Shown here: positions 10,144-52,209 of the stretch, piece after piece
Layout: each line of letters opens with the position of its first letter
Position numbering within the stretch: the stretch's first letter is position 1
Source: Gammaproteobacteria bacterium
GTDB taxonomy: Bacteria > Pseudomonadota > Gammaproteobacteria > JAUZRS01
Length of the DNA: 52,209 nucleotides
Direction of reading: 5' to 3'
NCBI GenBank assembly: GCA_030950195.1
Contig: JAUZRS010000251.1
Location: 1 to 52,209 of the forward strand
Notes under the pieces: model-generated
Seen by the model: only the letters and a program-made list of their open reading frames with translations
The model's database searches: none
Told to the model about the DNA's origin: nothing
Made by a program: the position numbers and the translations under genes

Positions 10144-11349
10144 ATGTACCTCTCTTTAACCACATCATTAAATGTAATCTTCATCTTAATCTCTTTTTTT
10201 TCACACAGCCTTTACGCGCTGCCCATCTCATGGGGAAAAAATGACAACGGTCAACTGGGTCACAACGCCGCCGGTGGTCCTGTTCCCCATGCCATTCTTA
10301 ACTCTGACCCATTCAGCGCGATTGACCTTGGCGCTCATGCCTCCATTGCACTGAAAACAGACGGCAGCGTCTGGAGCTGGGGAGGAAACTGGCACGGCGA
10401 ATTGGGCGATGGAAGCACAACACAAAGCACTCGACCCGTACAGGTGGTCGGCCTAAACAACGTCATTGCCGTGAGCCGAGCAGCAAAAACAGATACAGTG
10501 GCCGCCCTGAAAGCCGATGGCAGTGTTTGGTGCTGGGGACGGAATCAATATGGGCAGTTAGGCAACGGCACTCAGATAGACTCACTGACCGCCATGCAAA
10601 GCAACATCTCCAATGTGATCGCCATCGCCACCGGACCTGCAGATGTTATGGCCTTAAAAAAGGACGGCACCGTTTGGGCTTGGGGAGATAATTCTTATTG
10701 GAAATTCGGCTCCACCTCTGCGCTATCTGCTGGCAGTGTTTTTCAGGTCTTGGGCATCAGCAATGTGGTCGCCATCGCCTCCGGCAGTTATCACGCCCTC
10801 TACTTAAAAGCCGATGGCAGTGTTTGGCTGTCAGGACGCATGGGCAGTGTTTCTCTCAAAAGCCCCACGCAGGTGGCCAATTTATCCCGAGTGGTTGAAA
10901 TCACTGCTGGCCAAGAGTACAGCCTTGCCCGCAAAGAGGACGGCAGTGTCTGGGCGTGGGGTGCGAATTATTATGGCAATTTGGGCGATGGCACAACCAC
11001 AGAACGCCTGGCTCCCGTTCAGATCACAGGATTGAACCAAGTGGTGGATCTGTCTGCAAACTTATTCCACTCTCTGGCTGTAAAAACCGACGGCACTGTC
11101 TGGAGCTGGGGTTCAAATACAGCCGGTCAACTCGGCCACCGTAAGGCACAACACAAAACGCCTCAACAGATCATCGGTGTATCAAAATTCAATGCCGTCG
11201 CCACGGGCGGCAATCACTCTGCGGCCTATTTGGCACAATCAGCGCTGAGCAGCCTGCCTACACCCTACCCCCTCACACGTCGTGACGATGAAGACGAGAG
11301 TGATGACGACGACAACGAAGAGGATCACGATGACCAGCAAGATGATTGA
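10144..11349 (+). CDS. Exported RCC1-repeat (beta-propeller) protein with polyacidic C-terminal tail
   Basis: Signal-like N terminus. Repeated DGSVW-WG-N-YGQLG-G units, about seven. The tail RRDDEDESDDDDNEEDHDDQQDD is almost entirely D/E. AAGGAA RBS. Confidence 0.85.
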   Translation: MYLSLTTSLNVIFILISFFSHSLYALPISWGKNDNGQLGHNAAGGPVPHAILNSDPFSAIDLGAHASIALKTDGSVWSWGGNWHGELGDGSTTQSTRPVQVVGLNNVIAVSRAAKTDTVAALKADGSVWCWGRNQYGQLGNGTQIDSLTAMQSNISNVIAIATGPADVMALKKDGTVWAWGDNSYWKFGSTSALSAGSVFQVLGISNVVAIASGSYHALYLKADGSVWLSGRMGSVSLKSPTQVANLSRVVEITAGQEYSLARKEDGSVWAWGANYYGNLGDGTTTERLAPVQITGLNQVVDLSANLFHSLAVKTDGTVWSWGSNTAGQLGHRKAQHKTPQQIIGVSKFNAVATGGNHSAAYLAQSALSSLPTPYPLTRRDDEDESDDDDNEEDHDDQQDD

Positions 11350-11429
11350 ACCTTATTTCCATCCCACCTTGATTTTTAATCTCAGGCCTTTATCCTCTAA
11401 AGGTGATTTTCAACCAACTGGGGTTCCTT

Positions 11430-12086
11430 ATGTCTTTTGCTCGATTCGCACCACTGCTGTTTCTCTGCACTTTTACTGCCCAAGCTGGAGAGTTTGACAG
11501 CGACAGCTTACCCGTTGGCATCAGCGCTGGGATGGAACAGGCGACGGTGAAACACGCAGGCAAAACCATCGTGATCAAACGCAACCCCGACAACGCCCAC
11601 ACTGTGGATGAGAACTACGCCAAAACCTCTCGCCCTTGTCCGCCCTTCTGCATTCAACCCATGACTCTGGCACCCGGAGTGGAAACCATCGGTGAGTTGG
11701 AACTGATTGACTACCTGCAACGCCTGAGCAGCGGCGATAACAACATTCTCGTTATCGACTCCCGTACCCCAGTTTGGGTCGATCTGGGCAGCGTTCCTGG
11801 TGCGATTAATATTCCATGGAAAAAACTCAGTTTGAGCCAAGGGGCTGATCCATTGAGCCTCATTGAGATTTTAGAAGAGCAGTTTAACGTCCAGCAAAAC
11901 AGTGATTTTCTCGACTTTAAAAACGCCAAAACCTTAGTGATGTTTTGCAATGGCATGTGGTGCGGCCAATCTCCCAGCAACATCAAAACCTTATTACGGC
12001 TCGGTTATCCTGCCCACAAGCTCAAATGGTATCGTGGTGGAATGCAAAACTGGAACAATCTCGGCTTAACCACCGTTAAACCGTAA
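11430..12086 (+). CDS. Exported rhodanese-domain sulfurtransferase-like protein
   Basis: Signal peptide MSFARFAPLLFLCTFTAQA. CPPFC motif. Rhodanese active-site loop FCNGMWCGQS. ATG 11430 is preferred over GTG 11403. Confidence 0.7.
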   Translation: MSFARFAPLLFLCTFTAQAGEFDSDSLPVGISAGMEQATVKHAGKTIVIKRNPDNAHTVDENYAKTSRPCPPFCIQPMTLAPGVETIGELELIDYLQRLSSGDNNILVIDSRTPVWVDLGSVPGAINIPWKKLSLSQGADPLSLIEILEEQFNVQQNSDFLDFKNAKTLVMFCNGMWCGQSPSNIKTLLRLGYPAHKLKWYRGGMQNWNNLGLTTVKP

Positions 12087-23008: not shown

Positions 23009-23119
23009 TTATAAAATCGGCCTCTGTGTAGTGGTCAAGTAAATCTGGCCAAAGATTAGGAGCTAATTCCAAAATTGCAGCTCAGCTGACGCAGGGGATA
23101 ATCCTAAGTTGATTCAAAT

Positions 23120-23857
23120 TCACGCGGGTCCTCTCCCAACAATGCTCCTAACAACGTCAGTCAAACGGCACTTGAATTGATTAAAACTGGGCATATCAAT
23201 TCGGCACACATCAATATTATGTTCTCTCACTCGGTCTGCAATACCTTGAGCAGAGACCTCACCGGCCAACACCCTAGCCAGCTGAGTCTTCAAAGAGTGC
23301 GGCGCATTGTCATTGCCTGACTCACTTTCCAATGCATCACAGTGTTGGTAGTCTTTAGAGAGCGCACACAGCAGCCATGCCTCAGATTTGGGTTTAGGTA
23401 TCATCGGCACACCATAAGAAAAACCTTCATCATCAAACCCAGCCAACATGGAATCCCACTTGGCTTGCCAGTCACCTCGCCCCGCAGAAGCCGTGCCGTC
23501 TGCATCACGAAACAGTACCGCAACGACCTGATCGTTACACTCCGCTGCTTTTTCTTTTGCTCGTATGGCAAAAACACGAGCATTACGCCGATAATAAAGT
23601 GTTTCCGATCTGTTTTTTCTGCCTGGTAATGAAGGTGATTTTCGATGTGCTTTTAACTCTTGCGCACCTTGTGTCAACTCTGTTTCAGAGACGTACTCAA
23701 CAGATTCATTGTTAAGATCAAGATAAGAAAATTCGTAACCTTGAAGCCGCCCCAATAAGTGATCCACCATCACCGCCATCGGTCCTGCCATAAATTCAGC
23801 CGCATTATTCTTACCGCCTATATCTCCGACACCTTCTCCACTCAGCAAAAGGTACAT
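23120..23857 (-). CDS. Toprim-like (RloB/DUF4276-like) protein, partner of the upstream ATPase
   Basis: N-terminal LLLSGEGVGD (Toprim Glu), central VLFRDADG (DxD) and KSEAWLLCAL (E-x-W motif as in RloB-type proteins). The ATG overlaps the ATPase stop (TAATG). Motif-level inference only. Confidence 0.45.
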   Translation of the reverse strand: MYLLLSGEGVGDIGGKNNAAEFMAGPMAVMVDHLLGRLQGYEFSYLDLNNESVEYVSETELTQGAQELKAHRKSPSLPGRKNRSETLYYRRNARVFAIRAKEKAAECNDQVVAVLFRDADGTASAGRGDWQAKWDSMLAGFDDEGFSYGVPMIPKPKSEAWLLCALSKDYQHCDALESESGNDNAPHSLKTQLARVLAGEVSAQGIADRVREHNIDVCRIDMPSFNQFKCRLTDVVRSIVGRGPA

Positions 23858-25014
23858 TACTTGTCCTTATACCGCAGACCACTGATTTCATCAGCAAGCT
23901 GGCTTAGGTCTGTGTCCACAAATGCCTCCCCTGGCCCCATTAGTCTAAGCTTTTTGGCCATTGAAGGAATCGCAAATAGGGGAATTGCTTTGCTCAAGCC
24001 TGTATCTGTTTTGTAGAGATAATGAATGCCCGTTTTAGCCACCTCATCATCGAGATAGTTTAAGATCATCGGGCTGTGGGTAGTGACCAAAACCTGCTTG
24101 TCAGAATCAACCAAGCGTGTCATAAGAAACTCAATCAACTCAGGATTAATGCCATTTTCTATCTCATCAAACAACAGAAAACGATGTTCACTGAGCAGTT
24201 GTGCTAATACTGCGATCATACGCAACATGCCATCATTTATATGACGCGCATCCGTTAATAAATGATGCTGTCCATATTTTTCTTCTATAGAGAGCCCCTT
24301 CCAGCCTGAGCGCAAAGGGGCAACTTTTAATCGTTCAAGCTGAGGATAAATAGTATTCGTTTTTGCAAATAAAGTAGCTCGATGTTTTTCATTTAGCTCA
24401 TATAAAAAGGCAGATAAATTTTGCCCTCCTAAGCCCAGCTTGCCTTTTGCTTCACGAGTTCGACGACGTAACAGCTCTGGAGAAAGCAGATCCAGTGATT
24501 CAAGTTGAATAAAGAAATTCTTTAAATCCAATAAGTATGGAGTAAGCTGAGATGCTTTCAGTTGAGATAGAATCGACCCTTGATAGTCAAAAGCAATATC
24601 TCCTCGAAATAAGACTGTGTTTTTTCCCTGCTCGTTATAAATAACATAGTGGCCTTCTTCGACTTTCAAAACAACCTGACCGTTAGCAGTCACTCTTTCA
24701 CTGGTACAACGCAACGTCTGTCGATTAAACCCGGCCACCCACTGAAACTCTACTCCTTCGAACTGAAGGGTTACAAATAGGGAAATGTTACTTTTTCTGG
24801 TTAACTTGGAGTTAAGGTCTGCGGCTTTCCACTGTCGAGATTCCAGCCAGTTTTTTATATCGCCTTTAAATTGTTGGGCAATAAAATCGAGCAGTTGCAG
24901 TACAGTCGATTTACCTGAGCCGTTTAAGCCAACCAGACAAGAAAAAGGGGCCATTGGCAAATCAAAGTTCACCAAAGATTTAAAGTTATCTGCATGTAAG
25001 TGGGTTATCTTCAT
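23857..25014 (-). CDS. ABC/SMC-like AAA ATPase (AAA_15/AAA_21 type)
   Basis: MKITHLHADNFKSL start, Walker A GLNGSGKST, signature-like INDGMLRMIAVL, Walker B FLLFDEIENGINP and H-loop VLVTTHSP. Confidence 0.85.
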   Translation of the reverse strand: MKITHLHADNFKSLVNFDLPMAPFSCLVGLNGSGKSTVLQLLDFIAQQFKGDIKNWLESRQWKAADLNSKLTRKSNISLFVTLQFEGVEFQWVAGFNRQTLRCTSERVTANGQVVLKVEEGHYVIYNEQGKNTVLFRGDIAFDYQGSILSQLKASQLTPYLLDLKNFFIQLESLDLLSPELLRRRTREAKGKLGLGGQNLSAFLYELNEKHRATLFAKTNTIYPQLERLKVAPLRSGWKGLSIEEKYGQHHLLTDARHINDGMLRMIAVLAQLLSEHRFLLFDEIENGINPELIEFLMTRLVDSDKQVLVTTHSPMILNYLDDEVAKTGIHYLYKTDTGLSKAIPLFAIPSMAKKLRLMGPGEAFVDTDLSQLADEISGLRYKDK

Positions 25015-25139
25015 GGCATTGTCCCGTCAGCTACAGAGTCTATTGCTCTCATTTTTGCCCGTTACTGCTTTTACTTCCGCCAATAGATCAGAAAATTTTC
25101 CGTAGTTGATCTTCATACCACCACCATTATTTTAACCCA

Positions 25140-26270
25140 CTAATCAATTAACTCAGCACTGCTCAATTTTCGTAACAAAGCAGATCGGCCAGGATAACAA
25201 CGTTTAATTTCAACAACCTGTTCCTTAAAAGATTGCCAGTCATCTTGATGGTGAGCTAAATCACACAGCCCTTTTAAAATCGTCACGGCTTTATCGTATG
25301 ATTTTGATTTTTTCTCTTCGATTAAATCATAAACCTCCTGCCATGCCTCATCCTGTCTCGTTGCCAACACCGCCAATCGTTGTTGGCGAGCAATCTCCAA
25401 TTGACGTTGATGCTCTGCCTGTTGATCCCGTTTGTGTTCATCCTGCCGCTCAAGCAATTCTGCTATCGAGCGATTTGTTGATACATCTTTAGCGCCGTCA
25501 ACCTGCCCCTTTTTTGCCATTTTTTCTAACTTTCTGTTCAACAAAGCAGATAAATTTTCTTCACCATGAGCAAGGCGCAGAAGAAATTTACGCTGTTCCT
25601 TAGCAGGCAATTTATCAAGCCAAAGAGCCACATTAATTTTTTTCTCCTGCCGTGGCTTGCTTAGTTCTGCGGCAACAGCAACTAAGGCTTTATCAACGCC
25701 TAAAAACTTACACCACGCCACCTGCGCTGTGGAAAGCCTTTGTAACCCCGCAGGCAACGGTGGCTCCAAGAGATCAGCATCCACCTCACCATCATCCAAA
25801 ATATGTGCAGCGGCGAGCAACCAAGCCAAATACAAAGCACGAAAATCACCTTGCATTAACTCTGCTCTTAAATCCAGCAAATCATCCAGCCAACTCTCAG
25901 CATGCAACCAATCATCACTGCCATCATCTTGGAAATTAAAATCCAAAATAATGTGTTTTTTATCTTCCGAGAGAATACAATCAATCTCATCCGAAACCGA
26001 GAACAGAGCCACCTTTTTTATATCAACCAGCGAAACCGGCAAGCGAATCATTAAACGAAGTGATCCCCAGTCTGCCATATAAAGCATGATGTCAAAACAA
26101 CGCTCCATCAGCTGTACTTCATTGCCTCGAAAATCTCCGTAGTTATAAATAAAGGAGGCCTGATGAGAGGTGATTCGCGCTCGGCTGGAAAGTGTAGAAA
26201 GTTCCTTTTTTTCGACCTCACTCAAAGCACGGTCAATGGCACGAAACTCATAATATTGATACTCACTCAT
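25140..26270 (-). CDS. Conserved hypothetical protein (N-terminal YYEF...AIDR domain, charged coiled-coil C terminus)
   Basis: 376-aa ORF with a strong AAGGAG RBS 7 nt upstream. It begins MSEYQYYEFRAIDRALSEVEKKELSTLSSRARIT. No catalytic motif recognised. Confidence 0.6.
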   Translation of the reverse strand: MSEYQYYEFRAIDRALSEVEKKELSTLSSRARITSHQASFIYNYGDFRGNEVQLMERCFDIMLYMADWGSLRLMIRLPVSLVDIKKVALFSVSDEIDCILSEDKKHIILDFNFQDDGSDDWLHAESWLDDLLDLRAELMQGDFRALYLAWLLAAAHILDDGEVDADLLEPPLPAGLQRLSTAQVAWCKFLGVDKALVAVAAELSKPRQEKKINVALWLDKLPAKEQRKFLLRLAHGEENLSALLNRKLEKMAKKGQVDGAKDVSTNRSIAELLERQDEHKRDQQAEHQRQLEIARQQRLAVLATRQDEAWQEVYDLIEEKKSKSYDKAVTILKGLCDLAHHQDDWQSFKEQVVEIKRCYPGRSALLRKLSSAELID

Positions 26271-30088: not shown

Positions 30089-30382
30089 TCAAAGAATCAA
30101 ACTGTCTCGCAAAGCATCAGGAACTGGCTTCGCTCCAACATGTTCGACTTTTTTCCTGCCTTGTTTACCCAAAAAATAAAAACGCAAACTGTCCTTTTTT
30201 GGATCAAAAATAGCCGTCAACTTAGCCTTAAGAACAACAAATTGAGCCGGTGTGACTTCACATTCAAACACCGAGTTTTGCACTCGCATCCCGTAATCAA
30301 GACAGGTTTTTGCGATGTTACGCAAACGTTTTGTCCCACCGTCAGACACAACACTCACATCATATGTAATCAGTACCAACAT
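30089..30382 (-). CDS. cas2: Cas2
   Basis: MLVLITYDVSVVSDGGTKRLRNIAKTCLDYGMRVQNSVFEC... is the classic Cas2 N terminus. The ATG at 30382 lies 1 nt after the cas1 stop. The track N-terminal extension overlaps cas1. Confidence 0.9.
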   Translation of the reverse strand: MLVLITYDVSVVSDGGTKRLRNIAKTCLDYGMRVQNSVFECEVTPAQFVVLKAKLTAIFDPKKDSLRFYFLGKQGRKKVEHVGAKPVPDALRDSLIL

Positions 30383-30383
30383 C

Positions 30384-31400
30384 TTATTTAACCCAGTAAG
30401 GTGGATAGTATTCGAGATCGCCCCGAATGTGCCGTGCCAGCAACAACGCCTGACAATGAGGCAATAAGCCAATGGCCACCGACTCACCCAGATAAGGATG
30501 AGTCACCTCTGTCTGTTTACGTTCTTGCCATGCAGACAACACCGTCTTTCTTGCGTCATCTGTCAAACGCACAGCACCACTGGCTTCGGTCACAAAATCC
30601 GTCAATTGGATTTGGCGGCGATTGATCAATGTCAATACAAAACGATCAGCCCAAAACGCTCGAAACTCCTCCAGCAAATCCAGCGCAAGACTGACACGAC
30701 CAGGACGGTCTTTATGCAAAAACCCCACATACGGATCAAGCCCCACCCCTTGCAAAGCAGAAGAGCACTCATGAGTAATGAGCGTGTACGCAAAAGAGAG
30801 CAGCGCATTAACCGGATCCAGAGGAGGGCGACGAACGCGACCACTAAACACAAAACCTTTACCGCGAATCAGTTCATTAAACGCCCCAAAATAACTGCGC
30901 GCGGCATCGCCCTCCATCCCCATGACCTCTTCCACCGATTTGGCCTGCTTTACTCGACGCAAACTAACAGACAACTTTTCTGCCGCACCTCGCAACACAG
31001 AATTATCACCATGATTACGCAACTCCCTCATCAACACCGAGCGGCTATTGGCCACCTTAGCTGCCACCATCAAACGCGCAATCGAGGTGCATTTTTCATC
31101 TTCATCCGCCCAACGATATTGGCCACGTCGCAACAACACGTTGCCTGTTTGCGGCCCCTGAACTCGTGCTAGAAACTTGCCATATTCGCTATAAAACGTC
31201 AGCCCGATCCCCTTTTCACCACAGTAACCCATCAGAAAAGGAGAGACTGAAACCTGACCAAAACAGAGAATATTGCCAATCGTTAACGCCGGAAACTGCC
31301 CCAGCTTTTCATCCCCATTCTTAATAACAATGGTCTCTCGCTCTTTATGGAGATAACTTTTTTGGCGCGTAATATAAAGGCTGTTCAGCAATTTTTTCAT
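30384..31400 (-). CDS. cas1: Cas1 (type I-C)
   Basis: 338 aa. MKKLLNSLYITRQKSYLHKERETIVI start and conserved FGFxGR-like and EEFR regions. Lies between cas4 and cas2. Confidence 0.9.
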   Translation of the reverse strand: MKKLLNSLYITRQKSYLHKERETIVIKNGDEKLGQFPALTIGNILCFGQVSVSPFLMGYCGEKGIGLTFYSEYGKFLARVQGPQTGNVLLRRGQYRWADEDEKCTSIARLMVAAKVANSRSVLMRELRNHGDNSVLRGAAEKLSVSLRRVKQAKSVEEVMGMEGDAARSYFGAFNELIRGKGFVFSGRVRRPPLDPVNALLSFAYTLITHECSSALQGVGLDPYVGFLHKDRPGRVSLALDLLEEFRAFWADRFVLTLINRRQIQLTDFVTEASGAVRLTDDARKTVLSAWQERKQTEVTHPYLGESVAIGLLPHCQALLLARHIRGDLEYYPPYWVK

Positions 31401-32020
31401 TATTTAAATAACTCATCAATATAAGCGGCTGAATGATCACGACGAAACGTATCTGGTTCACACACATTCACCAAAGAGCAGGCTCTACACCGCTTTTTAT
31501 CTTTAATCGGCGCAGGGGTTTTGCCTAAATTCAGCAGTGTACGAGCCGCTTTAATCACCGCGATGGTGCTTTCTCTCAGTTCGGTGTTAATGCTGACCAG
31601 CTCTCGCTTACGCACCTCCCAGTACCAAAGAGCACCTTCGTTCACTGCCACGGAACGCATCTCTTCAAGACACAGTGCCTGCGCACAGAGCTGAATACGA
31701 TCCCAATCGTGTACTTTAGGCTTTCCCCGTTTGTACTCCACAGGAAAATAATGGAGTGGCTCACCCTCCTCGATCTCCAAAAGATCCATTTTTCCAGTGA
31801 GGCCGTATTGTTGCGAGTGCAGCAGCACACTGCGCTCGTATCTCTTTTCTCGCCGCTGCTCAGCAACCGTGCTGTCCACTCGCTCGTGCAACACCCGGCC
31901 TTCTGCGGTAAAGCGGTTTTCTTCCCACACTTGCTCAATATGAATCAAAGCAAATTGACGTGGACAGTAGGCATAATGTTGTAGGGCTGAGATGGCCAGA
32001 TGATCATCGTTCATCTTCAA
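31400..32020 (-). CDS. cas4: Cas4 (RecB-like exonuclease with Fe-S cluster)
   Basis: 206 aa. YAYCPRQF N-terminal Cys plus C-terminal CRACSLVNVC cluster. Overlaps cas1 and cas7 at both junctions. Confidence 0.9.
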   Translation of the reverse strand: MKMNDDHLAISALQHYAYCPRQFALIHIEQVWEENRFTAEGRVLHERVDSTVAEQRREKRYERSVLLHSQQYGLTGKMDLLEIEEGEPLHYFPVEYKRGKPKVHDWDRIQLCAQALCLEEMRSVAVNEGALWYWEVRKRELVSINTELRESTIAVIKAARTLLNLGKTPAPIKDKKRCRACSLVNVCEPDTFRRDHSAAYIDELFK

Positions 32021-32856
32021 AACCCATCAATTTCCTCTGGCTGTAAACCCTCCAAATTATCCAGCGTATAAGCTCCATCTGCCTTTACCGAAAGCGTCCG
32101 GTGAACCTTTGCAGATGAATATTGACCTGATTTACAGTTGTGTTTCCACCAAATCACTTTTTCAACCACCATACTGCCTTCTGGACGAGCAGAGGAAGAA
32201 TCACCCTCAAACAATTTGGGCAGTATCGTCTTTATTTTATCGGCATCCGCATCATCAAAGCCCGTTCGAACAGCCAATTGGGGCGACATTGCGCCAAACG
32301 TGACGTAAACGGCTTTATCAACACGGTGCTTCATGCCCATGGTATCTGAGCCTTTTTTAGTGCCATCGCCTTCACCGCTGACACTTTTGGTGATTTGTGT
32401 GCTGGTAATACTAACGGGTTCAACACTAAATGCAGATTGAATTGAAACCGGCCCCCGAATCGGAATAGAAACACCCTCTTTGTTTTCACCCTTAAAAGCA
32501 AACAGTTGTCCAAAACTGCGTACATCCATCCATTTTTCATTTGCTAGTCGTGCTGTTTCTACAGGCGTGGTCTTTTTTACATTAAACGCCTCTTTTCCTA
32601 AGCCATGCTCGCTCGACTCTGCACGTCTTTTTAAACTGGGCATACCATCGGTTTTTTTCTCATCCGACTGCACAAATATCGGCTCACCTGCATCTTGCAA
32701 GCGGTCTCGAATTTTTCGTTTGATGCAAACATCCGACACCTCACCAAAGCCATCGTAGTCGGTGCGAGGACGATTTCCGTTCAGTGGGTCACCGTTAGGA
32801 TTGGCATTTTTCACACTAAAAATCAGGGCGAAATCAATTTTATTTTCTAAGCTCAT
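32017..32856 (-). CDS. cas7: Cas7c (Csd2)
   Basis: MSLENKIDFALIFSVKNANPNGDPLNGNRPRTD... is the typical Csd2 N terminus. 279 aa. Confidence 0.9.
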   Translation of the reverse strand: MSLENKIDFALIFSVKNANPNGDPLNGNRPRTDYDGFGEVSDVCIKRKIRDRLQDAGEPIFVQSDEKKTDGMPSLKRRAESSEHGLGKEAFNVKKTTPVETARLANEKWMDVRSFGQLFAFKGENKEGVSIPIRGPVSIQSAFSVEPVSITSTQITKSVSGEGDGTKKGSDTMGMKHRVDKAVYVTFGAMSPQLAVRTGFDDADADKIKTILPKLFEGDSSSARPEGSMVVEKVIWWKHNCKSGQYSSAKVHRTLSVKADGAYTLDNLEGLQPEEIDGF

Positions 32857-34853
32857 TTGTTGTCTCCATCAGTTTGTAATTCGCTACTTTCATTTGTTTG
32901 TTTTTTATTGCGAAGCTCAAATCGTTGGGCGTGATACGCCAACAGAAACTCTCCACTTAAAGGTTTGTCACTCAAAAATTCACCTTCTTCGAATTTAACC
33001 ATAACCTCATCCAATAGAGTTTGGATGTTATGCAAAAATCCTGCTCGGTTATTTTTTAGCCGTTGAATATAGGGCAATAATGCCAGCTCGATGTTTCGCC
33101 AGGTTGATGAGGGTCGATCTGCAAATCGTTGCATTAATCTGGCCGCCGTGGTGGAGCGATTTTCTCCAGCCACATAAAGTGACACACCTTCAATTCTTTC
33201 TGCAATCGCCAGCAAGCGACCATATAAATAATCTCGTGACGTATTGTCTTGCTCTAATCCCACGGTATATTCCTTATTCTGTTTTGGATCTCGTTTACAA
33301 AAGCCTCGGTACAAAGCACAGGCTATTCCTAAGTGTTTTTCCCACAACCACTGTTCATCCGTTTTATAGGCACTTCGATTACTGGCACGGCGCACCGCTT
33401 TTTCAACCAAATCTTGTGGGAATGGACGCGCTTCAACAATACAGGGTAAAACACGCTCAATGGTATTTTTCTTCAGTGAATCACTTACCGTGCTGCCATA
33501 AATAGCCTCCCAGATTGCCCGAGGGGATGGCGCACAAACAGGCCATACTGTCTTTGACATTGGTTTTTTCTTGCCAACATCTTTTTCAACTTTATGGCGT
33601 TGATACCAAGCAAACTCGTTATGCCATTTTGAGACACGCTCAATGTAGTCATCAGAAAAAAATTCTTGGTAATAGGTAATCGCCATGCGACCAGGGGTTG
33701 CAGAATCAAGCCCCATGATGATGATGCTGTCTGTAGCCTGTAATTTGACCTGATAACCGGCCATGTACTTTCCCAGAGCAATGGAAAATTGCTGCCCCAA
33801 GTTTTTTGCATGATCAATCTGGTTTTCAAGCAGCGGTAGCGGAAGAGAAACCTCTTGTATCTCTTCTGGCATGGCATCCCAAAGGTCTTCCATTGGTTCG
33901 GGTATCTCCTCACCTGATACAGCCCAAGCGATAATAGCTTGATCCCCATTTCGGAACCCTTGCCGAGAAATCAACCACCGCAAAGCATTGTGAGCTTTTT
34001 GCGTTACATCAAAAGAAACTCCAACCGATTGCGTACCCTGCTTTTCTATTGTGTTCTTAGTATCCGTAAACCGACCTCTAAAGGTATAACCCGATTTGTC
34101 ATTTGATGAAATCAGTTTTGCTTTATCACCTGTATGTCGCAATTTAGCAGGATGGTTAACGGCCAACGGTACATTCTTGCCTGTGATATAACACAACCCT
34201 ATCTGCCCCTTACTTTCTGACTCATAGTTTACCCATGCACGTTGCAAACTAGAATCCTCCCAACTGTTGCTCACAGCCTCACCTGGAACCTCAATGCTCC
34301 AACAAACCAATGCATTACCTTGATCCAAGATGCCTTTTTCTTTCGGTAACACTTTGAATATTTTTGGAGCCTCACACTCACCACTTTTTGGCCAAGACAA
34401 CAACAATGAATGCTCTTCATCAGTAAACAGAACCTTACTTTCAAGCAAATCTTTTACAACACACCCTTTTTCAACATACAATTTTACCGCCCTTGCTTTG
34501 CAATGAGTGTATTTTGAGTTACACCATTTATCCAGCTGCTCAAGATACCCATTAAAGTAACCTTTCTTTTTACCACCATAATCTGGATAATCTTTAGCAA
34601 CGTATTGAATTTTATCGGCCAATGGATGAGGTGCTTCGCCACTGCTTCTACCCGCTGACTTTTCAGTTGCAGGCAGTACCACTTGTGTTTTTTCTAAAAC
34701 CTCAGCCCGCCTAAAATTACCTTCAACATCAAGGGTTATTTTGATATGTGCATTTTGCAAGGTATGACTAATCGGCATCAACTGGTCTGAGTCAGGCAGA
34801 TCAAGCTGCATACCTGCTTCGTAAGTCTCATACAACTTTGCCATCCAGCTCAT
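32853..34853 (-). CDS. cas8c: Cas8c (Csd1), large subunit
   Basis: 666-aa ORF between cas5c and cas7c with 4-nt overlaps on both sides. MSWMAKLYETYE start is typical of Csd1. Confidence 0.85.
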   Translation of the reverse strand: MSWMAKLYETYEAGMQLDLPDSDQLMPISHTLQNAHIKITLDVEGNFRRAEVLEKTQVVLPATEKSAGRSSGEAPHPLADKIQYVAKDYPDYGGKKKGYFNGYLEQLDKWCNSKYTHCKARAVKLYVEKGCVVKDLLESKVLFTDEEHSLLLSWPKSGECEAPKIFKVLPKEKGILDQGNALVCWSIEVPGEAVSNSWEDSSLQRAWVNYESESKGQIGLCYITGKNVPLAVNHPAKLRHTGDKAKLISSNDKSGYTFRGRFTDTKNTIEKQGTQSVGVSFDVTQKAHNALRWLISRQGFRNGDQAIIAWAVSGEEIPEPMEDLWDAMPEEIQEVSLPLPLLENQIDHAKNLGQQFSIALGKYMAGYQVKLQATDSIIIMGLDSATPGRMAITYYQEFFSDDYIERVSKWHNEFAWYQRHKVEKDVGKKKPMSKTVWPVCAPSPRAIWEAIYGSTVSDSLKKNTIERVLPCIVEARPFPQDLVEKAVRRASNRSAYKTDEQWLWEKHLGIACALYRGFCKRDPKQNKEYTVGLEQDNTSRDYLYGRLLAIAERIEGVSLYVAGENRSTTAARLMQRFADRPSSTWRNIELALLPYIQRLKNNRAGFLHNIQTLLDEVMVKFEEGEFLSDKPLSGEFLLAYHAQRFELRNKKQTNESSELQTDGDNK

Positions 34854-35566
34854 AATTTTTCTCCCTCAAGCTCCACGGACAAAAAGTTCTCACCTTCTAC
34901 GAACTCTTTTGGCAACATCGTACGAACAAAACGACTCACTGTACATTCCTCAGGGCGAGGAAATTCCAAAATTCCCTTTTTTAAAGTAGAACTCCAAAAA
35001 CGGCTGTGCAGTTCATTTTTACCCGTCTCATCTGGGTAATCAAAACCATGAAACATCAAACCAAAACCCAGCTCATCAATATCATCATAAGCACCGACTC
35101 CCTCACCAAATTCACATGGCTCAACGTAGGCCTGACAGTCACGAGTTCCCAGAAAAATATCCTGCCTGCCACCCCGTTCGATTGATCGTTTCGCAATGGA
35201 AAAGTGCTTGCCGTCAATATGATCCTTGGCCAATTCAGGTCGGTGTTCGTTCCATTCAAAATGCGCTTCGACCTGATACTCCACCTCATGCAAAAAGGTA
35301 TAAATGGCCAAACTGTTACCACCACTCCAGACCAACGGTTTGACACCCTTAGTCTGTGTTCGCAACGTTTTAATCACCCTCACCTTATCCACATACCAAA
35401 TAAAAGAAGGCTTCCAATAAATTGATTTTAAAACACCTTTTATGGCTTCATAAGTTGGCAAGTGATAGGAGCATTTTTCACCACCTATTTTTGTCACTGG
35501 ATCAGTAAACAGGGCATAACGCCCATGCACCTTGAAACTGACACTATTCTTTGGCGTTGCATACAT
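34850..35566 (-). CDS. cas5: Cas5c (Cas5d) pre-crRNA endoribonuclease
   Basis: SFKVHGRYALFTDPVTKIGGEKCSYHLPTYEAIKGVLKSIYWKP is the hallmark Cas5d N terminus. 238 aa. Confidence 0.9.
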   Translation of the reverse strand: MYATPKNSVSFKVHGRYALFTDPVTKIGGEKCSYHLPTYEAIKGVLKSIYWKPSFIWYVDKVRVIKTLRTQTKGVKPLVWSGGNSLAIYTFLHEVEYQVEAHFEWNEHRPELAKDHIDGKHFSIAKRSIERGGRQDIFLGTRDCQAYVEPCEFGEGVGAYDDIDELGFGLMFHGFDYPDETGKNELHSRFWSSTLKKGILEFPRPEECTVSRFVRTMLPKEFVEGENFLSVELEGEKL

Positions 35567-35578
35567 TCGGTTTTCTCC

Positions 35579-37993
35579 TTAAAAAACATGTGCTGTCATT
35601 TGACAACAGGGTTTATCAGACAAGCCAAATTCATTACTGTAATATTGCTCATCCAGACAGTAGATCTCTTCATCAGGCTGTATTTCATACACCGCTTTTT
35701 CTTGCTGTAATCGCTTCAACACATTCGGAAAAACATTGACACTGTATTGCTGCGCCTGCTTCAGCAAGTTACGATACCTTTTTATATCAAACTCTTTCGC
35801 CACACGCCCCAACTCAGCAATAATATTTTTCCCCTCATTACCATACGGAACAATGATCGCTTGTGTGGGCGAGTCAATCGCCTTGAATATCTTGCCAGCG
35901 GTCATAAAAGAGTGTTGCAGCAGAATAGATTTTTTATTTTGGCCAACATTCCGCGTATTCTCGCTCAATAAATTAAGCAGATCATCATCCCAACCCAACT
36001 GCTTGGCTGAAACAGGGTAACTCATCTCCTTAGCTCGATCATGAAAGTAATATTTAAAATACTGACCGATGGCCTCGGGAGCAAGCAAATTATCAAATCC
36101 TTCTTCCATTACCCGCAAGGCCTTATCTCGACCAACCTTGATTTCTTGCAATAAATCTATTTTTTCTTCATCTGGATTGACAACATGCACTGTCGCGCTT
36201 TTGAGTAAACCATTTCTATTGCAGCGCCCAGCGGCTTGCGCTATGGAATCCAATCCAGCCAGAAACCGAATCACTGAAGAAAAATCCACATCGACACCCG
36301 CTTCAATTAATTGGGTACTGATACAGATAACGGGTTGATTGCTCTTCAATCTCACCTTAATTTTTTTAAATATGACTTTACGGTGTGCAGGACAGAGACT
36401 GGTACTCAACTGAAAAATTGAATTTTCATCAACATCAGGATCCGTCTCTATCTCAAGGTACAGTTGTTGCGCCCAAGATTTGGTATTAACAATCACCAGA
36501 CAACTACCGAGTTTTTTAAATTCCGCCAAGGCAAGCTCTGAAATTTGAGCCGTTGTCCAGCCTTCAGGACGAACTTTGTTGCTCAAAGTCACACGATTTA
36601 AATCTGCAAACAATTTAGGTACATTGTTAACCAACTCATTTTCAGGCGGTAGCAGCAATTGCCCTTTCTCTGGAGAATGAAGTTTATCGAGCAACGGCTG
36701 CGTCGCGGTACAAAGTAGCGCAGTCGTTTTACAATGATCACTAAGGAAATTTAGCGCGTTGCAAAACAGGTGGACGCAATTTATTGGCAAAGTCTGAATC
36801 TCGTCAAAGATCAACACGCTGTTGGCCAGTTGGTGCATTTTTCTTGCGCCTCGTGTACCACCTGAAAACAGCACCTCAAGAAACTGCACCATCGTTGTCA
36901 TCACAATGGGTGCATCCCAATTCTCACTCACCAACTTGCTATGCCAACTCTGCTGTTCTGGCTCCAGATTCGAATGCTGTTCCAGAACCCACGGGGTTTC
37001 ATCCCTTGAATCTTCAATAACCGCTCTAATAGCCTCTGCGTTCTGTTCAATAATAGAGGTAAAGGGAATAATATAAATAATCCGATCCAGTTTATGCTGC
37101 TGAACATGATGCAGTGCGTAACGCAAGCTGGCGTAGGTTTTTCCTCCGCCAGTGGGAACAGTGAGGGTATAAATTCCCTGCGCATCTAACGCTCGCGCAC
37201 GGCACGTCTCTGAAATCTCTCTTCGCAATAGATCAATCGGCTTATCGCCATTGAATTTTTTATTAGCCCGCTCAAAACGTTCAATAGCAATAGTCCAAGC
37301 GGGTCTATTATTTCTATAAGGTTCATTCTCAGGAAATTCAAAGTCTGCGCTGTTCATACGGTCGGCATCAATCAAACAACTGAATAACAGACGGCTAAAA
37401 AAACCCACATTAAATGCTCGAATGGATTTATTAGGCGCTTGACCAACGACCTTGAGCCGCCGCCATACGCATTGAATCAACTCTTTTCCCACTAATGCCT
37501 GAATCTTTTCAAGGTACTCTTCTGGCGCGCTCTCCAATGCTTCATTTTTATGGGTTTTATGATCCGACTTTTCCATTCTTTTTGAGAAGCTATTCTTGCC
37601 GTCTGGCTTGAGACAATCAATCAAACCACTGTGGTGTGACGCAATACAAAGAGACAAAATTTGACCAACCAACTGCCCTTGTAGCCCCCACTTTTGGCAG
37701 CTCTCCCAAACCCATTGAGCACCGGCACTGGAATGATCAATCTTTCCCTTTAAACCTTTAAAATCAACAAAATCATCCTCATCTGGATTAATCAGGCCTG
37801 TCGCAGATGCTAAATATGTCTGAAATTCTGCACTGTATTTTCCAAAATCATGTAATAAACCAATGACTTCACCCGCATCACCTAGTCCTATTTTTTCTGC
37901 ACAACGTGCAGTCAAACAGCCCACTTCGTTCAAGTGATCAATCAGATTTTGCTTATCCCCATTTTTTTTCACATGAGCAATGTGGTTATTCAT
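35579..37993 (-). CDS. cas3: Cas3 HD nuclease / SF2 helicase
   Basis: HD motif LLHDFGKYSAEFQ. Helicase motif I VPTGGGKT and motif II IFDEIQ. 804 aa. First gene of the operon. Confidence 0.9.
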   Translation of the reverse strand: MNNHIAHVKKNGDKQNLIDHLNEVGCLTARCAEKIGLGDAGEVIGLLHDFGKYSAEFQTYLASATGLINPDEDDFVDFKGLKGKIDHSSAGAQWVWESCQKWGLQGQLVGQILSLCIASHHSGLIDCLKPDGKNSFSKRMEKSDHKTHKNEALESAPEEYLEKIQALVGKELIQCVWRRLKVVGQAPNKSIRAFNVGFFSRLLFSCLIDADRMNSADFEFPENEPYRNNRPAWTIAIERFERANKKFNGDKPIDLLRREISETCRARALDAQGIYTLTVPTGGGKTYASLRYALHHVQQHKLDRIIYIIPFTSIIEQNAEAIRAVIEDSRDETPWVLEQHSNLEPEQQSWHSKLVSENWDAPIVMTTMVQFLEVLFSGGTRGARKMHQLANSVLIFDEIQTLPINCVHLFCNALNFLSDHCKTTALLCTATQPLLDKLHSPEKGQLLLPPENELVNNVPKLFADLNRVTLSNKVRPEGWTTAQISELALAEFKKLGSCLVIVNTKSWAQQLYLEIETDPDVDENSIFQLSTSLCPAHRKVIFKKIKVRLKSNQPVICISTQLIEAGVDVDFSSVIRFLAGLDSIAQAAGRCNRNGLLKSATVHVVNPDEEKIDLLQEIKVGRDKALRVMEEGFDNLLAPEAIGQYFKYYFHDRAKEMSYPVSAKQLGWDDDLLNLLSENTRNVGQNKKSILLQHSFMTAGKIFKAIDSPTQAIIVPYGNEGKNIIAELGRVAKEFDIKRYRNLLKQAQQYSVNVFPNVLKRLQQEKAVYEIQPDEEIYCLDEQYYSNEFGLSDKPCCQMTAHVF

Positions 37994-49166: not shown

Positions 49167-52100
49167 TTAAGGCAACAGAGTGCGAATTTCAACTCGGCGG
49201 TTTTCTACTCGTCCAGCAAGCGTTGCATTATTTCTTAACGGGTGGCGTTCACCATAACCTGTGACCTGCAAACGATGACCACTGACACCGTGCTGAAGCA
49301 AATAGTCCCGCACCGCGTTGGCACGCTCTAAAGAGAGCTGCATATTGTAATCTCGGCTGCCACGACTGTCTGTATGCCCTGCCAGCAGCAAAACAACCTC
49401 ATCATGTTGCATCAACTGCAAAGCCAAATTGTGCAAAACAGTCTGCCCCGCCTCAGATAAAATAGACTGATCGTAGGCAAAACCAATTCGCAATTGAATT
49501 AACAACGGCTCAACCTGAGCAGGCTTTTCTTTAACGTCAACCGCCTGCCTTTGTACGCCAACGGGAGTCGGAAGCGAAGCCGTTTTCACCACGCTAGAAG
49601 AGCGACCCCAACGAGCCTGAAACGCCAGCGCCAACACTTGAGCATCACGATCAAAGTGACTGTAATCCAGTTTAGCACCCCACTGAGAATTAATCGGCCA
49701 CAAAAAACCGGCACCCCAATGGATGCCGATGTCATTCAAATTGCGTAATGCAATTCTCGAATCCGTAGCCTCGGTACTCAACATATGCAACCCCCCTTTT
49801 AGATAAGGTCTGAGCTTTTTTTTCGGCAGCTGAATCAGGTATTCGAGGCTCAGACCATAGGCTTTGTAAGCCAAACTGCCCAGATCGCCAATCTGCGCCA
49901 AACGATGTTTGAGACGCACCTCACCCAGATCCAGCGCAAAACCTTCCAACAACCACTCTTTATGCCATTGAAAACCAACCGCCAAACCCAAGCTCATGGC
50001 ACGATTGTCTGTTATATCAACCCCGAACTGAGTTCGGCTCGGCTGCAAACGACTGATGCCGGTCAATACATTTAACGACCAAGTTGGATTGGGTAACGGT
50101 TCAAGGTTCGCATCAACAGCAGTGGAAGTCCGACTGTAACTGACCGGTGAAAAAGCCAACATCGGCAGAAAAGAGAGCGCTGCTAATTTCTTCCGTCGTA
50201 AAATCAACAAAGAAAACAGCATCAACAACCAAAAGGGTTCCGCGCTGCCCACTCCCGTCACCGAGGTGCTCAAACTGAATTTAATTTCGTTGTCCAGTTG
50301 ATCAGTAATCTCATTACGATTACTGTCCAACAGCGGCAGCGGCCGATCACTGAACTGATCCGACCAACCGTCACCGTTCTGATCAATAAATTGATCCACT
50401 CGACCGTCGTTGTCGTAATCCATACCACCGGCTTCAATGATGTCCATCAAGGTATCGTTGTCTGAATCGTTATCGAGATAATCGGGCAGGCCATCGTTAT
50501 CCGTATCCATCGGCTTCAACGGCATCAGCAACAAGCCATCGGAAAGACCATCGCCATCCAGGTCTACAAACTGATCCCAAAGACCATCGTTGCCCTCATC
50601 CACACCCAAAGCTTCCAGTAGATCCGGCAGACCATCGTTATCGCTGTCCAGATCCAAATAATCAGGAACACCATCACCATCGCTGTCTAACAAACCTTCC
50701 ACCTGATCTGACAGACCATCGTTATCGTCATCCAGATCAAATTCATTCAAAATGCCATCACCGTCACTGTCCAAAATACTGATCACCCAGATCGTACGAA
50801 TCAGCTCAGGGGCTGCATTGCCCGAGCTGTCACTGACGGCATAACGTAAGGTGTAAATCCCAGCCACCTCACTCTCCACCTGACCGCTCACCTGTACTTG
50901 GGCAGAGAGATCCCCCTCCACCTGATCCAAAGCTTCAAAGCCAGGCTCTTGATAAAGCTCACCTTGCAAGATAGAAAGCGACGCCTCACCCAATAAGGTG
51001 AGACGGGGCGCAGTGAGATCCAGCAACGTCACCTTCTGCTGTGCTTGACTTTGATTGCCATAAAAATCGCTGGCTACCCAAGTGACAAGGGTCTCACCAA
51101 GAGGAAAACGGCTTGGCGCATCGTGGCTGAGGCTCACTGAAAACAGATCGTTTGCCGTCGCCTGACCAAAATCGACCGCCGTTAACAGCGTCTCCGTCAC
51201 CACGATCACATCTGAAGGCAGCATCAACACAGGCACTGTGGTGTCTTGCACCCGCACCGTACGTTGCACAGGCACACTCAAATTACCCGCGACATCACGA
51301 ACGCGGTAATTCAATTGATACGTTCCCGGCAGCGCACTGTTGACCTGCCCTGAAATGTGCACTGCTGCGCTAAGATCACCGTCCACAATATCGGTTGCAA
51401 TGACACCCGCCTCTTGATAAAACTCACCTGCTTCTATGGTCACATTGGCATTGCCCAACAAGGCCAACGATGCAGGCGTACGATCCAACACCGTCACCAC
51501 CCGACTCAATTGCGCAGAATTGCCAAATTGATCGCTGACCTGATAAAGCACCGAATAAACCCCAGGAACATAGGTATTAACCGTACTGCTAACCACCACA
51601 TTGGCACTTAAATCATTACCCAGATCATCCTGCGCCGTGGCACCGGCATCTTGATAACTGTCACCCGCTTCCAAGCTGACATCGCCACCATTAAGCGTGA
51701 TCACTGGAACGTGCAAAGGCACTACCTGCACCGTTCTTAAGACAAAAGAAGCATTACCTCGACTGTCTTGAGCATCGTAACGCAGGGTGTAACTGCCCAA
51801 GGTAAAAGGGTCAACCATACCGCTGACCTGTACTGACGCACCCACATCCCCATCCACCAAATCAACAGCAGTCACTCCCAACTCTTGGTAAGGAGTGCTG
51901 ATTTTTAAGGTCACATTGGCATTGCCATTCAGCCCCATCAAAGGCCCTTGAGTGTCCACTACGGTCACCGTCTCTATCGTCGTAGCACGATTACCAACCA
52001 CATCCACCGCTGTCCAAGTAATGGAGGTGACACCCAAAGGATAAGCATTCAGCCCATTGTGACTCAAGGTCACGGGCGAGGTGTCCAGTACCGTTGGCGG

Positions 52101-52209
52101 CGTTAAGGTCAACGTACTGATTACGCCTGTTGCCTCTAAAATGTGATTCAGTGGTGGTGTAATTTGGGGTGCTGTTTGATCAATCAACAGCGTCACCGCA
52201 GCGGCGGTT
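49167..52209 (-). CDS. Giant surface protein: Ig-like/HYR repeats, thrombospondin type-3 Ca-binding repeats, barrel-like region, OmpA C-terminal domain (5' end beyond window)
   Basis: The frame stays open to the window edge. About five repeats of the LNG.NV.LE.G..YQE.G..A.D.VDGDLS pattern. [22 protein letters not shown] repeats. C-terminal [26 protein letters not shown]...NRRVEI OmpA motif. Confidence 0.8.

Follow-up and report, generated by a model that had tools for sequence, protein, structure and literature searches.

In this article I discuss a pair of overlapping genes from an uncultured gammaproteobacterium, found on a contig of 52,209 nucleotides (JAUZRS010000251.1, assembly GCA_030950195.1) that was analysed over its whole length and will be called the window. 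The pair is almost certainly PDC-M25, a two-gene phage defence candidate already present in the PADLOC database, and, judged by its sequence, the locus is an intact member of this catalogued candidate system and no new system. Gene A (23857..25014, minus strand) encodes PDC-M25A, a 385-residue ATP-binding cassette (ABC) ATPase that was identified through its open reading frame (ORF), Pfam, PADLOC and a fold match, and gene B (23120..23857, minus strand) encodes PDC-M25B, a partner of 245 residues that was identified through its ORF, PADLOC and its invariant residues as a putative metal-dependent nuclease effector. I consider the pair likely to be a defence system, and lean slightly, by analogy with better studied pairs, towards a nuclease under ATPase control that would act in abortive infection or as a backup defence. 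I also describe how the copy in the window appears to have descended from a cassette that was once embedded in a bacteriophage exclusion (BREX) operon.

A catalogued candidate system

Both proteins match their PADLOC-DB v2 models from end to end: protein A is aligned to PDC-M25A (PDLC04541) with an E-value of 1.4e-157 over residues 2-381 of 385 and profile positions 1-373 of 380, and protein B to PDC-M25B (PDLC04546) with an E-value of 9.2e-90 over residues 1-239 and profile positions 1-244 of 248, with four more PDC-M25B models in PADLOC matching B as well. A and B also lie side by side on one strand, with A first, as PDC-M25 requires. The candidate corresponds to cassette CAS_00102, in which FAM_00005 is followed by FAM_00372, as catalogued in the study that nominated 145 "phage defence candidates" through "guilt by embedding" in known defence systems, all of them predictions (Payne et al., bioRxiv 10.1101/2024.01.29.577857). 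Nothing that defines PDC-M25 sets the window pair apart from it; the differences lie in the setting, since this copy is stand-alone and not embedded, and its host is an uncultured gammaproteobacterium.

An earlier, sequence-only reading of this DNA had found the pair not recognisable as any named system, and on this point it is superseded by the full-length matches; the PADLOC search that it had itself proposed was run and returned PDC-M25 for both proteins. Its description of the genes has fared well. The ORFs of 385 and 245 residues overlapping in TAATG are present, on the minus strand (which it had not given), and all the motifs that it quoted for the two proteins are there and are conserved in orthologues, so that they are not chance. 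At the coupling junction, which is read directly from the sequence (23855..23868, minus strand), the stop codon TAA of A (23859-23857) and the ATG of B (23857-23855) have one base of the TAATG in common, and a Shine-Dalgarno-like AAGGA (23868-23864) lies within the 3' end of A, separated from the B ATG by a 6-nt spacer. The pair is A/T-richer than its surroundings, as had been remarked by eye and is now measured: the GC content is 0.414 in A and 0.473 in B compared to 0.53-0.59 in neighbouring genes, and the GC content at third codon positions is 0.39-0.41 in the pair compared to 0.64-0.65 in the neighbours. Both genes are intact, full-length ORFs in which every family-invariant residue is present. 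The appropriate annotation label for the locus is PDC-M25 (candidate) and not a new system, B should not be labelled as Toprim without further evidence, and PADLOC would flag the window pair automatically.

The ABC ATPase

Protein A contains a Walker A motif (GLNGSGKST), INDGMLRMIAVL, a signature-like DGMLR, a combined Walker B and D-loop (LLFDEIENG) and an H-loop (TTHSP), and conservation across 71 orthologues is 90-100% for Walker A, for the signature (DGxLR), for Walker B (DExExG) and for the H-loop (TTHSP). K35 belongs to the Walker A and E284 to the Walker B motif, and the C-terminal part of A has a conserved GPGE...DT segment. The Pfam families AAA_21 (3e-21, 77.1 bits, cut-off 27) and AAA_15 (3e-16, 60.4 bits, cut-off 32.1) both match above threshold, in agreement with the families named in the sequence-only reading. 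The AlphaFold2 model has a pLDDT score (predicted local distance difference test) of 87.6 and, when searched with Foldseek against the PDB, returns 525 significant matches, among which Rad50/SMC heads and Septu/retron PtuA rank first, with E-values of about 1e-12 and template modelling (TM) scores of 0.5-0.57. Profile comparison with hhalign identifies A as a full-length homologue of HEC-01A (99.3%, E 5e-20) and aligns it at 96% with the N-terminal ATPase region of P2 Old, while TsOLD (6P74) is among its nearest solved sequences. Its best NCBIfam match is antiphage_MADS3, at 7.7e-23 and 81.3 bits against a cut-off of 420; the PADLOC models for mad3 (6.7e-20) and AriA (5e-22) match too, both far below the PDC-M25A score, and those for GajA (8e-15) and Old (2.5e-12) match in the ATPase motifs only. 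These comparisons place protein A in the defence clade of OLD-, HEC-01A- and PtuA-like proteins, as an ABC ATPase predicted to be catalytically complete.

Resemblance to Rad50/SMC heads, together with weak matches of A to the SMC_N and RecF models, could also recall a housekeeping DNA-repair pair analogous to RecF, an ABC ATPase, and RecR, a Toprim protein. This explanation is barely credible for a pair found in 225 of 185,579 species genomes only, absent from a sister genome, foreign in base composition, and located within BREX operons and on plasmids.

Distribution and embedding in BREX

The species scan took one genome per species, and the 225 relatives that it uncovered are spread over Gammaproteobacteria, Planctomycetota, Desulfobacterota, Cyanobacteria, Zetaproteobacteria, Nitrospirales and other groups; seven plasmids carry the family as well, and no phage record does. 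A homologue of A is located directly upstream of B on the same strand in 79 of the 80 loci retrieved, the contig of the 80th being truncated, and the gap between the two genes lies between -23 and +16 nt and is most often 1 nt (38 loci), which bears out the coupled two-gene module that had been proposed from this one sequence. Neighbouring proteins were clustered and the loci were then scanned with PADLOC, those that extend 4 kb or more to each side of the pair (n=41) being counted as well flanked. PglX is found upstream of the pair and PglZ, BrxL, BrxC and BrxB around it in family loci. Embedding in a known defence system, by which the candidate was nominated, is seen in 14 of the 41, where the pair sits within a type I BREX operon between pglX and pglZ; the remaining 27 loci are outside BREX, and the window copy has no BREX genes and a relic of the pglX 3' end. 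The enrichment of homologues next to defence genes, whose absence would have counted against the sequence-only reading, is seen in the BREX-1 loci, which give the family a strong association with defence, but not around the non-BREX copies, whose three nearest neighbours per side rarely match defence models. RefSeq annotation bears out the embedding independently: the Acinetobacter plasmid pNDM1_010055 has the order brxC, pglX, pair, pglZ, brxL, Moellerella plasmids carry the pair in a different slot, between brxC and pglX, and on a Hydrogenimonas plasmid the pair adjoins an HNH endonuclease. What emerges is a conserved, tightly coupled two-gene module that is mobile, patchy across phyla and plasmids, and associated with BREX.

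Some of these loci have features of their own. A SoFic-like protein with a Fic domain (about 345 residues; PADLOC SoFic 5e-41) is encoded at position +1 after B in L007, L008, L009 and about seven other loci, often between PDC-M25B and pglZ in BREX; this slot would then hold two embedded passengers. Directly after PDC-M25B in the BREX operon of L029 there is a second AAA_15/AAA_21 ATPase (10791-11960; 389 residues, 22% identical to A) with no obvious partner gene. The Skermanella sp. TT6 plasmid pTT6-2 (L085, 4908-6844) carries a PDC-M25 pair that has diverged strongly and has no defence context, its A being 26% identical to that of the window and its B reaching 93% against the B profile in hhalign with GEG..D, DAD and SESW kept, and this pair will be useful for defining the minimal conserved core.

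Origin of the window copy

The 125-bp leader ahead of A carries a remnant of a BREX pglX gene, from its 3' end (25027..25116, minus strand, the homologous part being about 25116-25048), which was located by tblastn of PglX C-termini. Positions 25116-25048 encode KINYGKFSDLLAEVKAVTGK, with 18 of 20 residues equal to the PglX consensus C-terminus, and the tblastn alignments have 72-81% identity over 20-23 residues with E-values down to 1e-6. The stop codon of this relic is 12 nt ahead of the ATG of A, the same spacing as in BREX-embedded loci, and there are no other BREX genes in the 52-kb window. Relics of the PglX C-terminus are also found ahead of A in four BREX-less loci (L017 8709-8792, L041 8651-8788, L077 8644-8799 and L028 7343-7510), and L041 and L028 have relics of the PglZ N-terminus downstream as well. 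Given the pglX 3' relics in the window and in these four loci, the stand-alone copies would therefore descend from BREX-embedded cassettes, and for the window copy the leader establishes such a descent at the level of sequence. The relics suggest that cassettes were exchanged or that BREX decayed, the breakpoints falling in the conserved 3' end of pglX, and this conserved end may be the recombination arm through which cassettes are exchanged.

A sister metagenome-assembled genome (MAG; GCA_030949385.1, L084) adds a further chapter. It is syntenic with the window across cbtB, cbtA, an AAA gene, cobO, a gene for a 376-residue protein, DUF1302, a TP_0789-like gene and MMPL, with flanks that are 92.8-94.5% identical, and blastn of the window against it delimits a presence/absence segment of 1,994 bp that holds A and B (23010..25003, no strand assigned), with breakpoints at 25004 and 23009 and 190 bp of unrelated sequence in its place in the sister. 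Since the sister retains the leader with the pglX relic and also the first 11 nt of A, the sequence suggests that the pair was lost or replaced there rather than simply inserted in the window; no convincing target-site duplications or terminal inverted repeats were seen at the indel. The relics and this polymorphism together offer a concrete picture of BREX-embedded cassettes escaping and persisting as stand-alone islands. At about 11257-11364 of L084, the ATGAAGATAAC of gene A that the sister retains runs into a 35-codon ORF (MKITLKALNGFLG...), the start of which resembles an ABC ATPase N-terminus and which may be a remnant of another cassette.

The same history could be told of a BREX accessory factor that is not autonomous and modulates, for example, PglX or PglZ, in which case the window copy would be a functionless leftover heading to decay: one third of the well-flanked loci have the pair between pglX and pglZ, the window copy is accompanied by a pglX relic and by no other BREX gene, and the pair is already lost from the sister genome. 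However, both ORFs are full length with all family-invariant residues intact, 27 of the 41 loci are outside BREX, the slot within BREX varies by plasmid (pglX-pglZ or brxC-pglX), which fits an independent passenger better than a fixed subunit, and related pairs of ATPase and effector act autonomously, making an accessory role quite improbable. A selfish addiction cassette, resembling toxin-antitoxin (TA) systems and kept by post-segregational killing with no anti-phage role, must also be considered for a small mobile two-gene unit that occurs on plasmids and shows presence/absence polymorphism, and AAA_21 is indeed annotated as 'putative AbiEii toxin, type IV TA'. Yet the sister has lost the pair without visible compensation, the embedding in BREX is specific and recurrent, and no antitoxin-like small DNA-binding gene is present, and I regard this explanation as very unlikely.

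The partner protein and a possible mechanism

Protein B carries the motifs LLLSGEGVGD, FRDADG and KSEAWLLCAL, and an alignment of its family down to 25% identity has G7-E8-G9, D12, G14, G25, D118, D120, E159, W161 and E177 invariant. The AlphaFold2 model (pLDDT 87.2, predicted TM score 0.88) has an alpha/beta core in which the acidic residues sit where strands end: E8 ends strand 1 (residues 2-7), D118xD120 follows the strand at 111-116, and S158-E159 come just after the strand at 149-152. The Toprim site has been described for a sheet of order 2-1-3-4, with a Glu close to strand 1 and a DxD following strand 3, and both DUF4276 and RloB have been classed as Toprim members (Menshen paper, PMC12065111). 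From predicted secondary structure alone, B has the conserved Glu ending strand 1, the DxD after strand 3 and a further Glu after strand 4, and the order of its motifs, as modelled, fits a Toprim-type site. Homologues of B are plentiful (more than 1,400 in 90% clusters), all of them unannotated and none with a Pfam domain, and a profile search yielded 569 representatives at 50% clustering, of which the best 150 (all with E<=1e-49) include no visible bridging family. One apparent fusion protein, P0241, turned out to be a chimera that lacks strand 1 and E8 and is uninformative.

By analogy with PARIS, HEC-04, HEC-01 and the OLD family, A, as a dimer or oligomer, would hold B inactive and serve as the sensor. 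The trigger would be some cue from the phage, for which a protein directed against restriction or BREX, such as a DNA mimic of the Ocr type, is plausible, upon which the binding or hydrolysis of ATP by A would release or activate B. B, in turn, would be a Mg2+- or Mn2+-dependent nuclease using E8/D12, D118/D120, E159 and E177, and would cut tRNA or DNA, leading to growth arrest or abortive infection. Within BREX operons the module would then be a back-up layer for when BREX is inhibited, and outside BREX, as in the window, a stand-alone system.

A number of observations weigh against this picture. Foldseek finds no match of the B model in the PDB at E<=0.001, Toprim nucleases included, while A in the same pipeline, a positive control for the fold search, gave its 525; the hidden Markov models (HMMs) for Toprim, Toprim_OLD, RloB (PF13707) and DUF4435 match none of 25 B family members, RloB even at E<=10; hhalign gives the B profile a probability of 0.07% against P2 Old; and against a profile of 29 sequences of HEC-01B relatives (DUF4276/HEC-01B), built for comparison with B, hhalign gives 0.8%, which is noise level, and HMMER in both directions stays at the level of reversed-sequence controls. 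Both trigger and substrate are proposed by analogy only. A promoter scan found no promoter-like site upstream of A on its own strand, and a terminator scan around the pair gave terminator-like matches at chance level. To these must be added the 27 well-flanked loci outside BREX, the sparse defence matches around non-BREX copies, and the published record: no experimental report of PDC-M25 was found, its name occurs in no main text of the literature searched, and it is not among the PADLOC candidates that were put to the test in two studies.

The negative results on B could also mean that it is not a nuclease but some other enzyme or an adaptor built on an alpha/beta scaffold of Rossmann type, for example a sensor, a phosphoesterase or an enzyme that modifies nucleotides, with an E...DxD...E arrangement that is convergent or serves to bind a ligand or metal. 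The model has no fold match to any nuclease, its top weak Foldseek matches are generic three-layer alpha/beta enzymes (the best in the PDB being CTP synthase, at an E-value of 0.057), and the profile comparisons with Toprim and DUF4276 families are negative. Foldseek against BFVD likewise gives no match at E<=0.001, neither Pfam nor NCBIfam matches B (nor does NCBIfam when given the broad B alignment), PDB sequence-profile searches with narrow and broad B alignments return nothing relevant, hhalign of B against HEC-01B as a single sequence is negative, and Pfam DUF4276 (PF14103, threshold 30.2 bits) does not match the window B even at E<=10. On the other side, five invariant acidic residues at strand or loop ends are typical of metal-dependent phosphoryl-transfer sites, all characterised partners of the ATPase clade of A are nucleases (Toprim, NERD, PIN, HNH), and there are weak, collinear matches to DUF4276 and HEC-01B, divergent members included: seven of 25 B relatives and one divergent Skermanella member reach 13-19 bits with DUF4276 against its cut-off of 30.2, aligning protein residues of about 83-236 to profile positions of about 48-192, and the PADLOC HEC-01B model PDLC04210 reaches an E-value of about 0.005, from two divergent B members. 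HEC-01B itself is annotated as a DUF4276 family protein and has been assigned to the Toprim superfamily, with a superposition on the Toprim domain of BpOLD (Payne et al., Fig. S6, bioRxiv 10.1101/2024.01.29.577857). A role for B other than that of a nuclease is, on balance, unlikely. DUF4276 seeds beside 'mad3-like' ATPases in the loci were also followed, and were dropped when the neighbours proved to be housekeeping genes.

The nuclease reading of B can now be stated more precisely. The sequence-only reading had called B Toprim-like, and the order of its motifs agrees with the predicted secondary structure, but Foldseek, the Toprim HMMs and hhalign against P2 Old do not; the comparison of the predicted structure with Toprim folds that it had suggested produced a confident model and no PDB match. 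The likeness to RloB/DUF4276-type proteins that it had noted is retained for DUF4276 in relatives of B only, and below threshold, and is lost for RloB. "Toprim/DUF4276-like nuclease" is a plausible description of B and no demonstrated fact, and the chance that B is a Toprim-related nuclease seems to me a little short of even. It is possible, though rather doubtful, that B represents a nuclease lineage so far unrecognised, be it a far-diverged branch of Toprim/DUF4276 or a separate fold, without solved relatives, and that PDC-M25 is an autonomous abortive-infection module which evolved as a passenger in BREX, senses the inhibition of BREX (by Ocr-like proteins, for example) and spreads by recombination through the conserved pglX 3' end; stand-alone copies would then have pglX relics upstream because of this route of spread. 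As B has no solved structural relative, much could be learned from its structure or from an assay of its activity.

Neighbouring genes

The sequence-only reading had also placed the pair in the same co-directional block as a CRISPR-Cas island (CRISPR: clustered regularly interspaced short palindromic repeats). The strand is indeed the same, and the type I-C operon cas3-cas5-cas8c-cas7-cas4-cas1-cas2 (30089-37993, minus strand) is complete, but about 5 kb of conserved housekeeping block lies between it and the pair, and there is no CRISPR array anywhere in the window. The intervening genes are cbtB, cbtA, an AAA chelatase-like gene and cobO (cobalt/cobalamin) together with the gene for the 376-residue protein, and they are conserved in the sister genome, which has neither the cas operon nor the pair. 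Because two separate indels flank a conserved housekeeping block, the CRISPR-Cas neighbourhood is uninformative for the pair. At the site of the cas operon the sister MAG has an ApaLI-type restriction-modification (R-M) system, a BrnT/BrnA toxin-antitoxin pair and HrpB.

The 376-residue conserved hypothetical protein (25140-26270, minus strand, with a low GC content of 0.43) matches nothing in Pfam, NCBIfam or PADLOC; its homologues number about 1,200, and the copy in the sister MAG is 98% identical. A homologue adjoins the PDC-M25 pair in Desulfobacter vibrioformis (L038, 10723-11877), and another stands beside a type I R-M system (L089). As a third component of the system this gene was rejected, being kept in the sister without A and B, found beside the pair in one of 80 loci, and mixed in its contexts. 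At the far end of the window, an 84-nt tandem repeat (50607-50771; two copies, 76% matches) lies within a minus-strand ORF of 1009 residues (49167-52196).

Comparison with known systems

Of the named systems, HEC-01 shares with PDC-M25 a two-gene layout and embedding in defence systems, along with an ATPase that is homologous over its full length (A and HEC-01A both belong to FAM_00005), and HEC-01 has been reported to protect against at least one phage (PMC12881386). B and HEC-01B have the same order of motifs, namely a Glu, a DxD and E-A-[WF] (EE, RDQD and ELEA[FW] in HEC-01B), and the DxD is separated from the following Glu by 39 residues in B and by 35 in HEC-01B. They differ in that B has 245 residues and HEC-01B 192, with about 55 extra residues in B between strand 1 and the DxD, and in that there is no significant profile similarity between them, the PDLC04210 match coming from divergent members only.

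PARIS is likewise split into an ATPase and an effector, and A matches AriA models; there, sensing of Ocr is followed by release of the nuclease and then by cleavage of tRNA (PMC11464382), and PARIS-like OLD-ABC/Toprim modules have been reported embedded in BREX loci, where modules of an OLD-ABC with a nuclease are proposed as backup effectors (PMC12839542). In contrast to the PARIS proteins, B has no match to DUF4435 or AriB in Pfam or PADLOC, nor does its model match AriB among PDB structures, and A, at 385 residues, is shorter than AriA, which is 53-55 kDa (PMC11464382). The MADS system is related through antiphage_MADS3, the best NCBIfam match of A, and through the partner Mad4, a DUF4276 homologue (PMC12065111), mad3 and mad4 both being needed for full MADS defence. 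However, the score of A is far from the MADS3 cut-off (81.3 bits compared to 420), B matches no mad4 or NCBIfam model, and there are no other mad genes. The RloA/RloB pair is set apart by the missing RloB (PF13707) match in the 25 B family members.

The ABC ATPase head of A comes from the same broad clade as those of OLD and Gabija GajA, where ATPase and Toprim are fused in a single protein of about 550-600 residues, whereas here they are split into 385 and 245 residues; B has no similarity to the Old Toprim domain, and, unlike in Gabija, no helicase (GajB) adjoins the pair. If PDC-M25 proves active, it would provide one more system of an ABC ATPase and an effector in the group that already includes OLD, PARIS, Septu and HEC.

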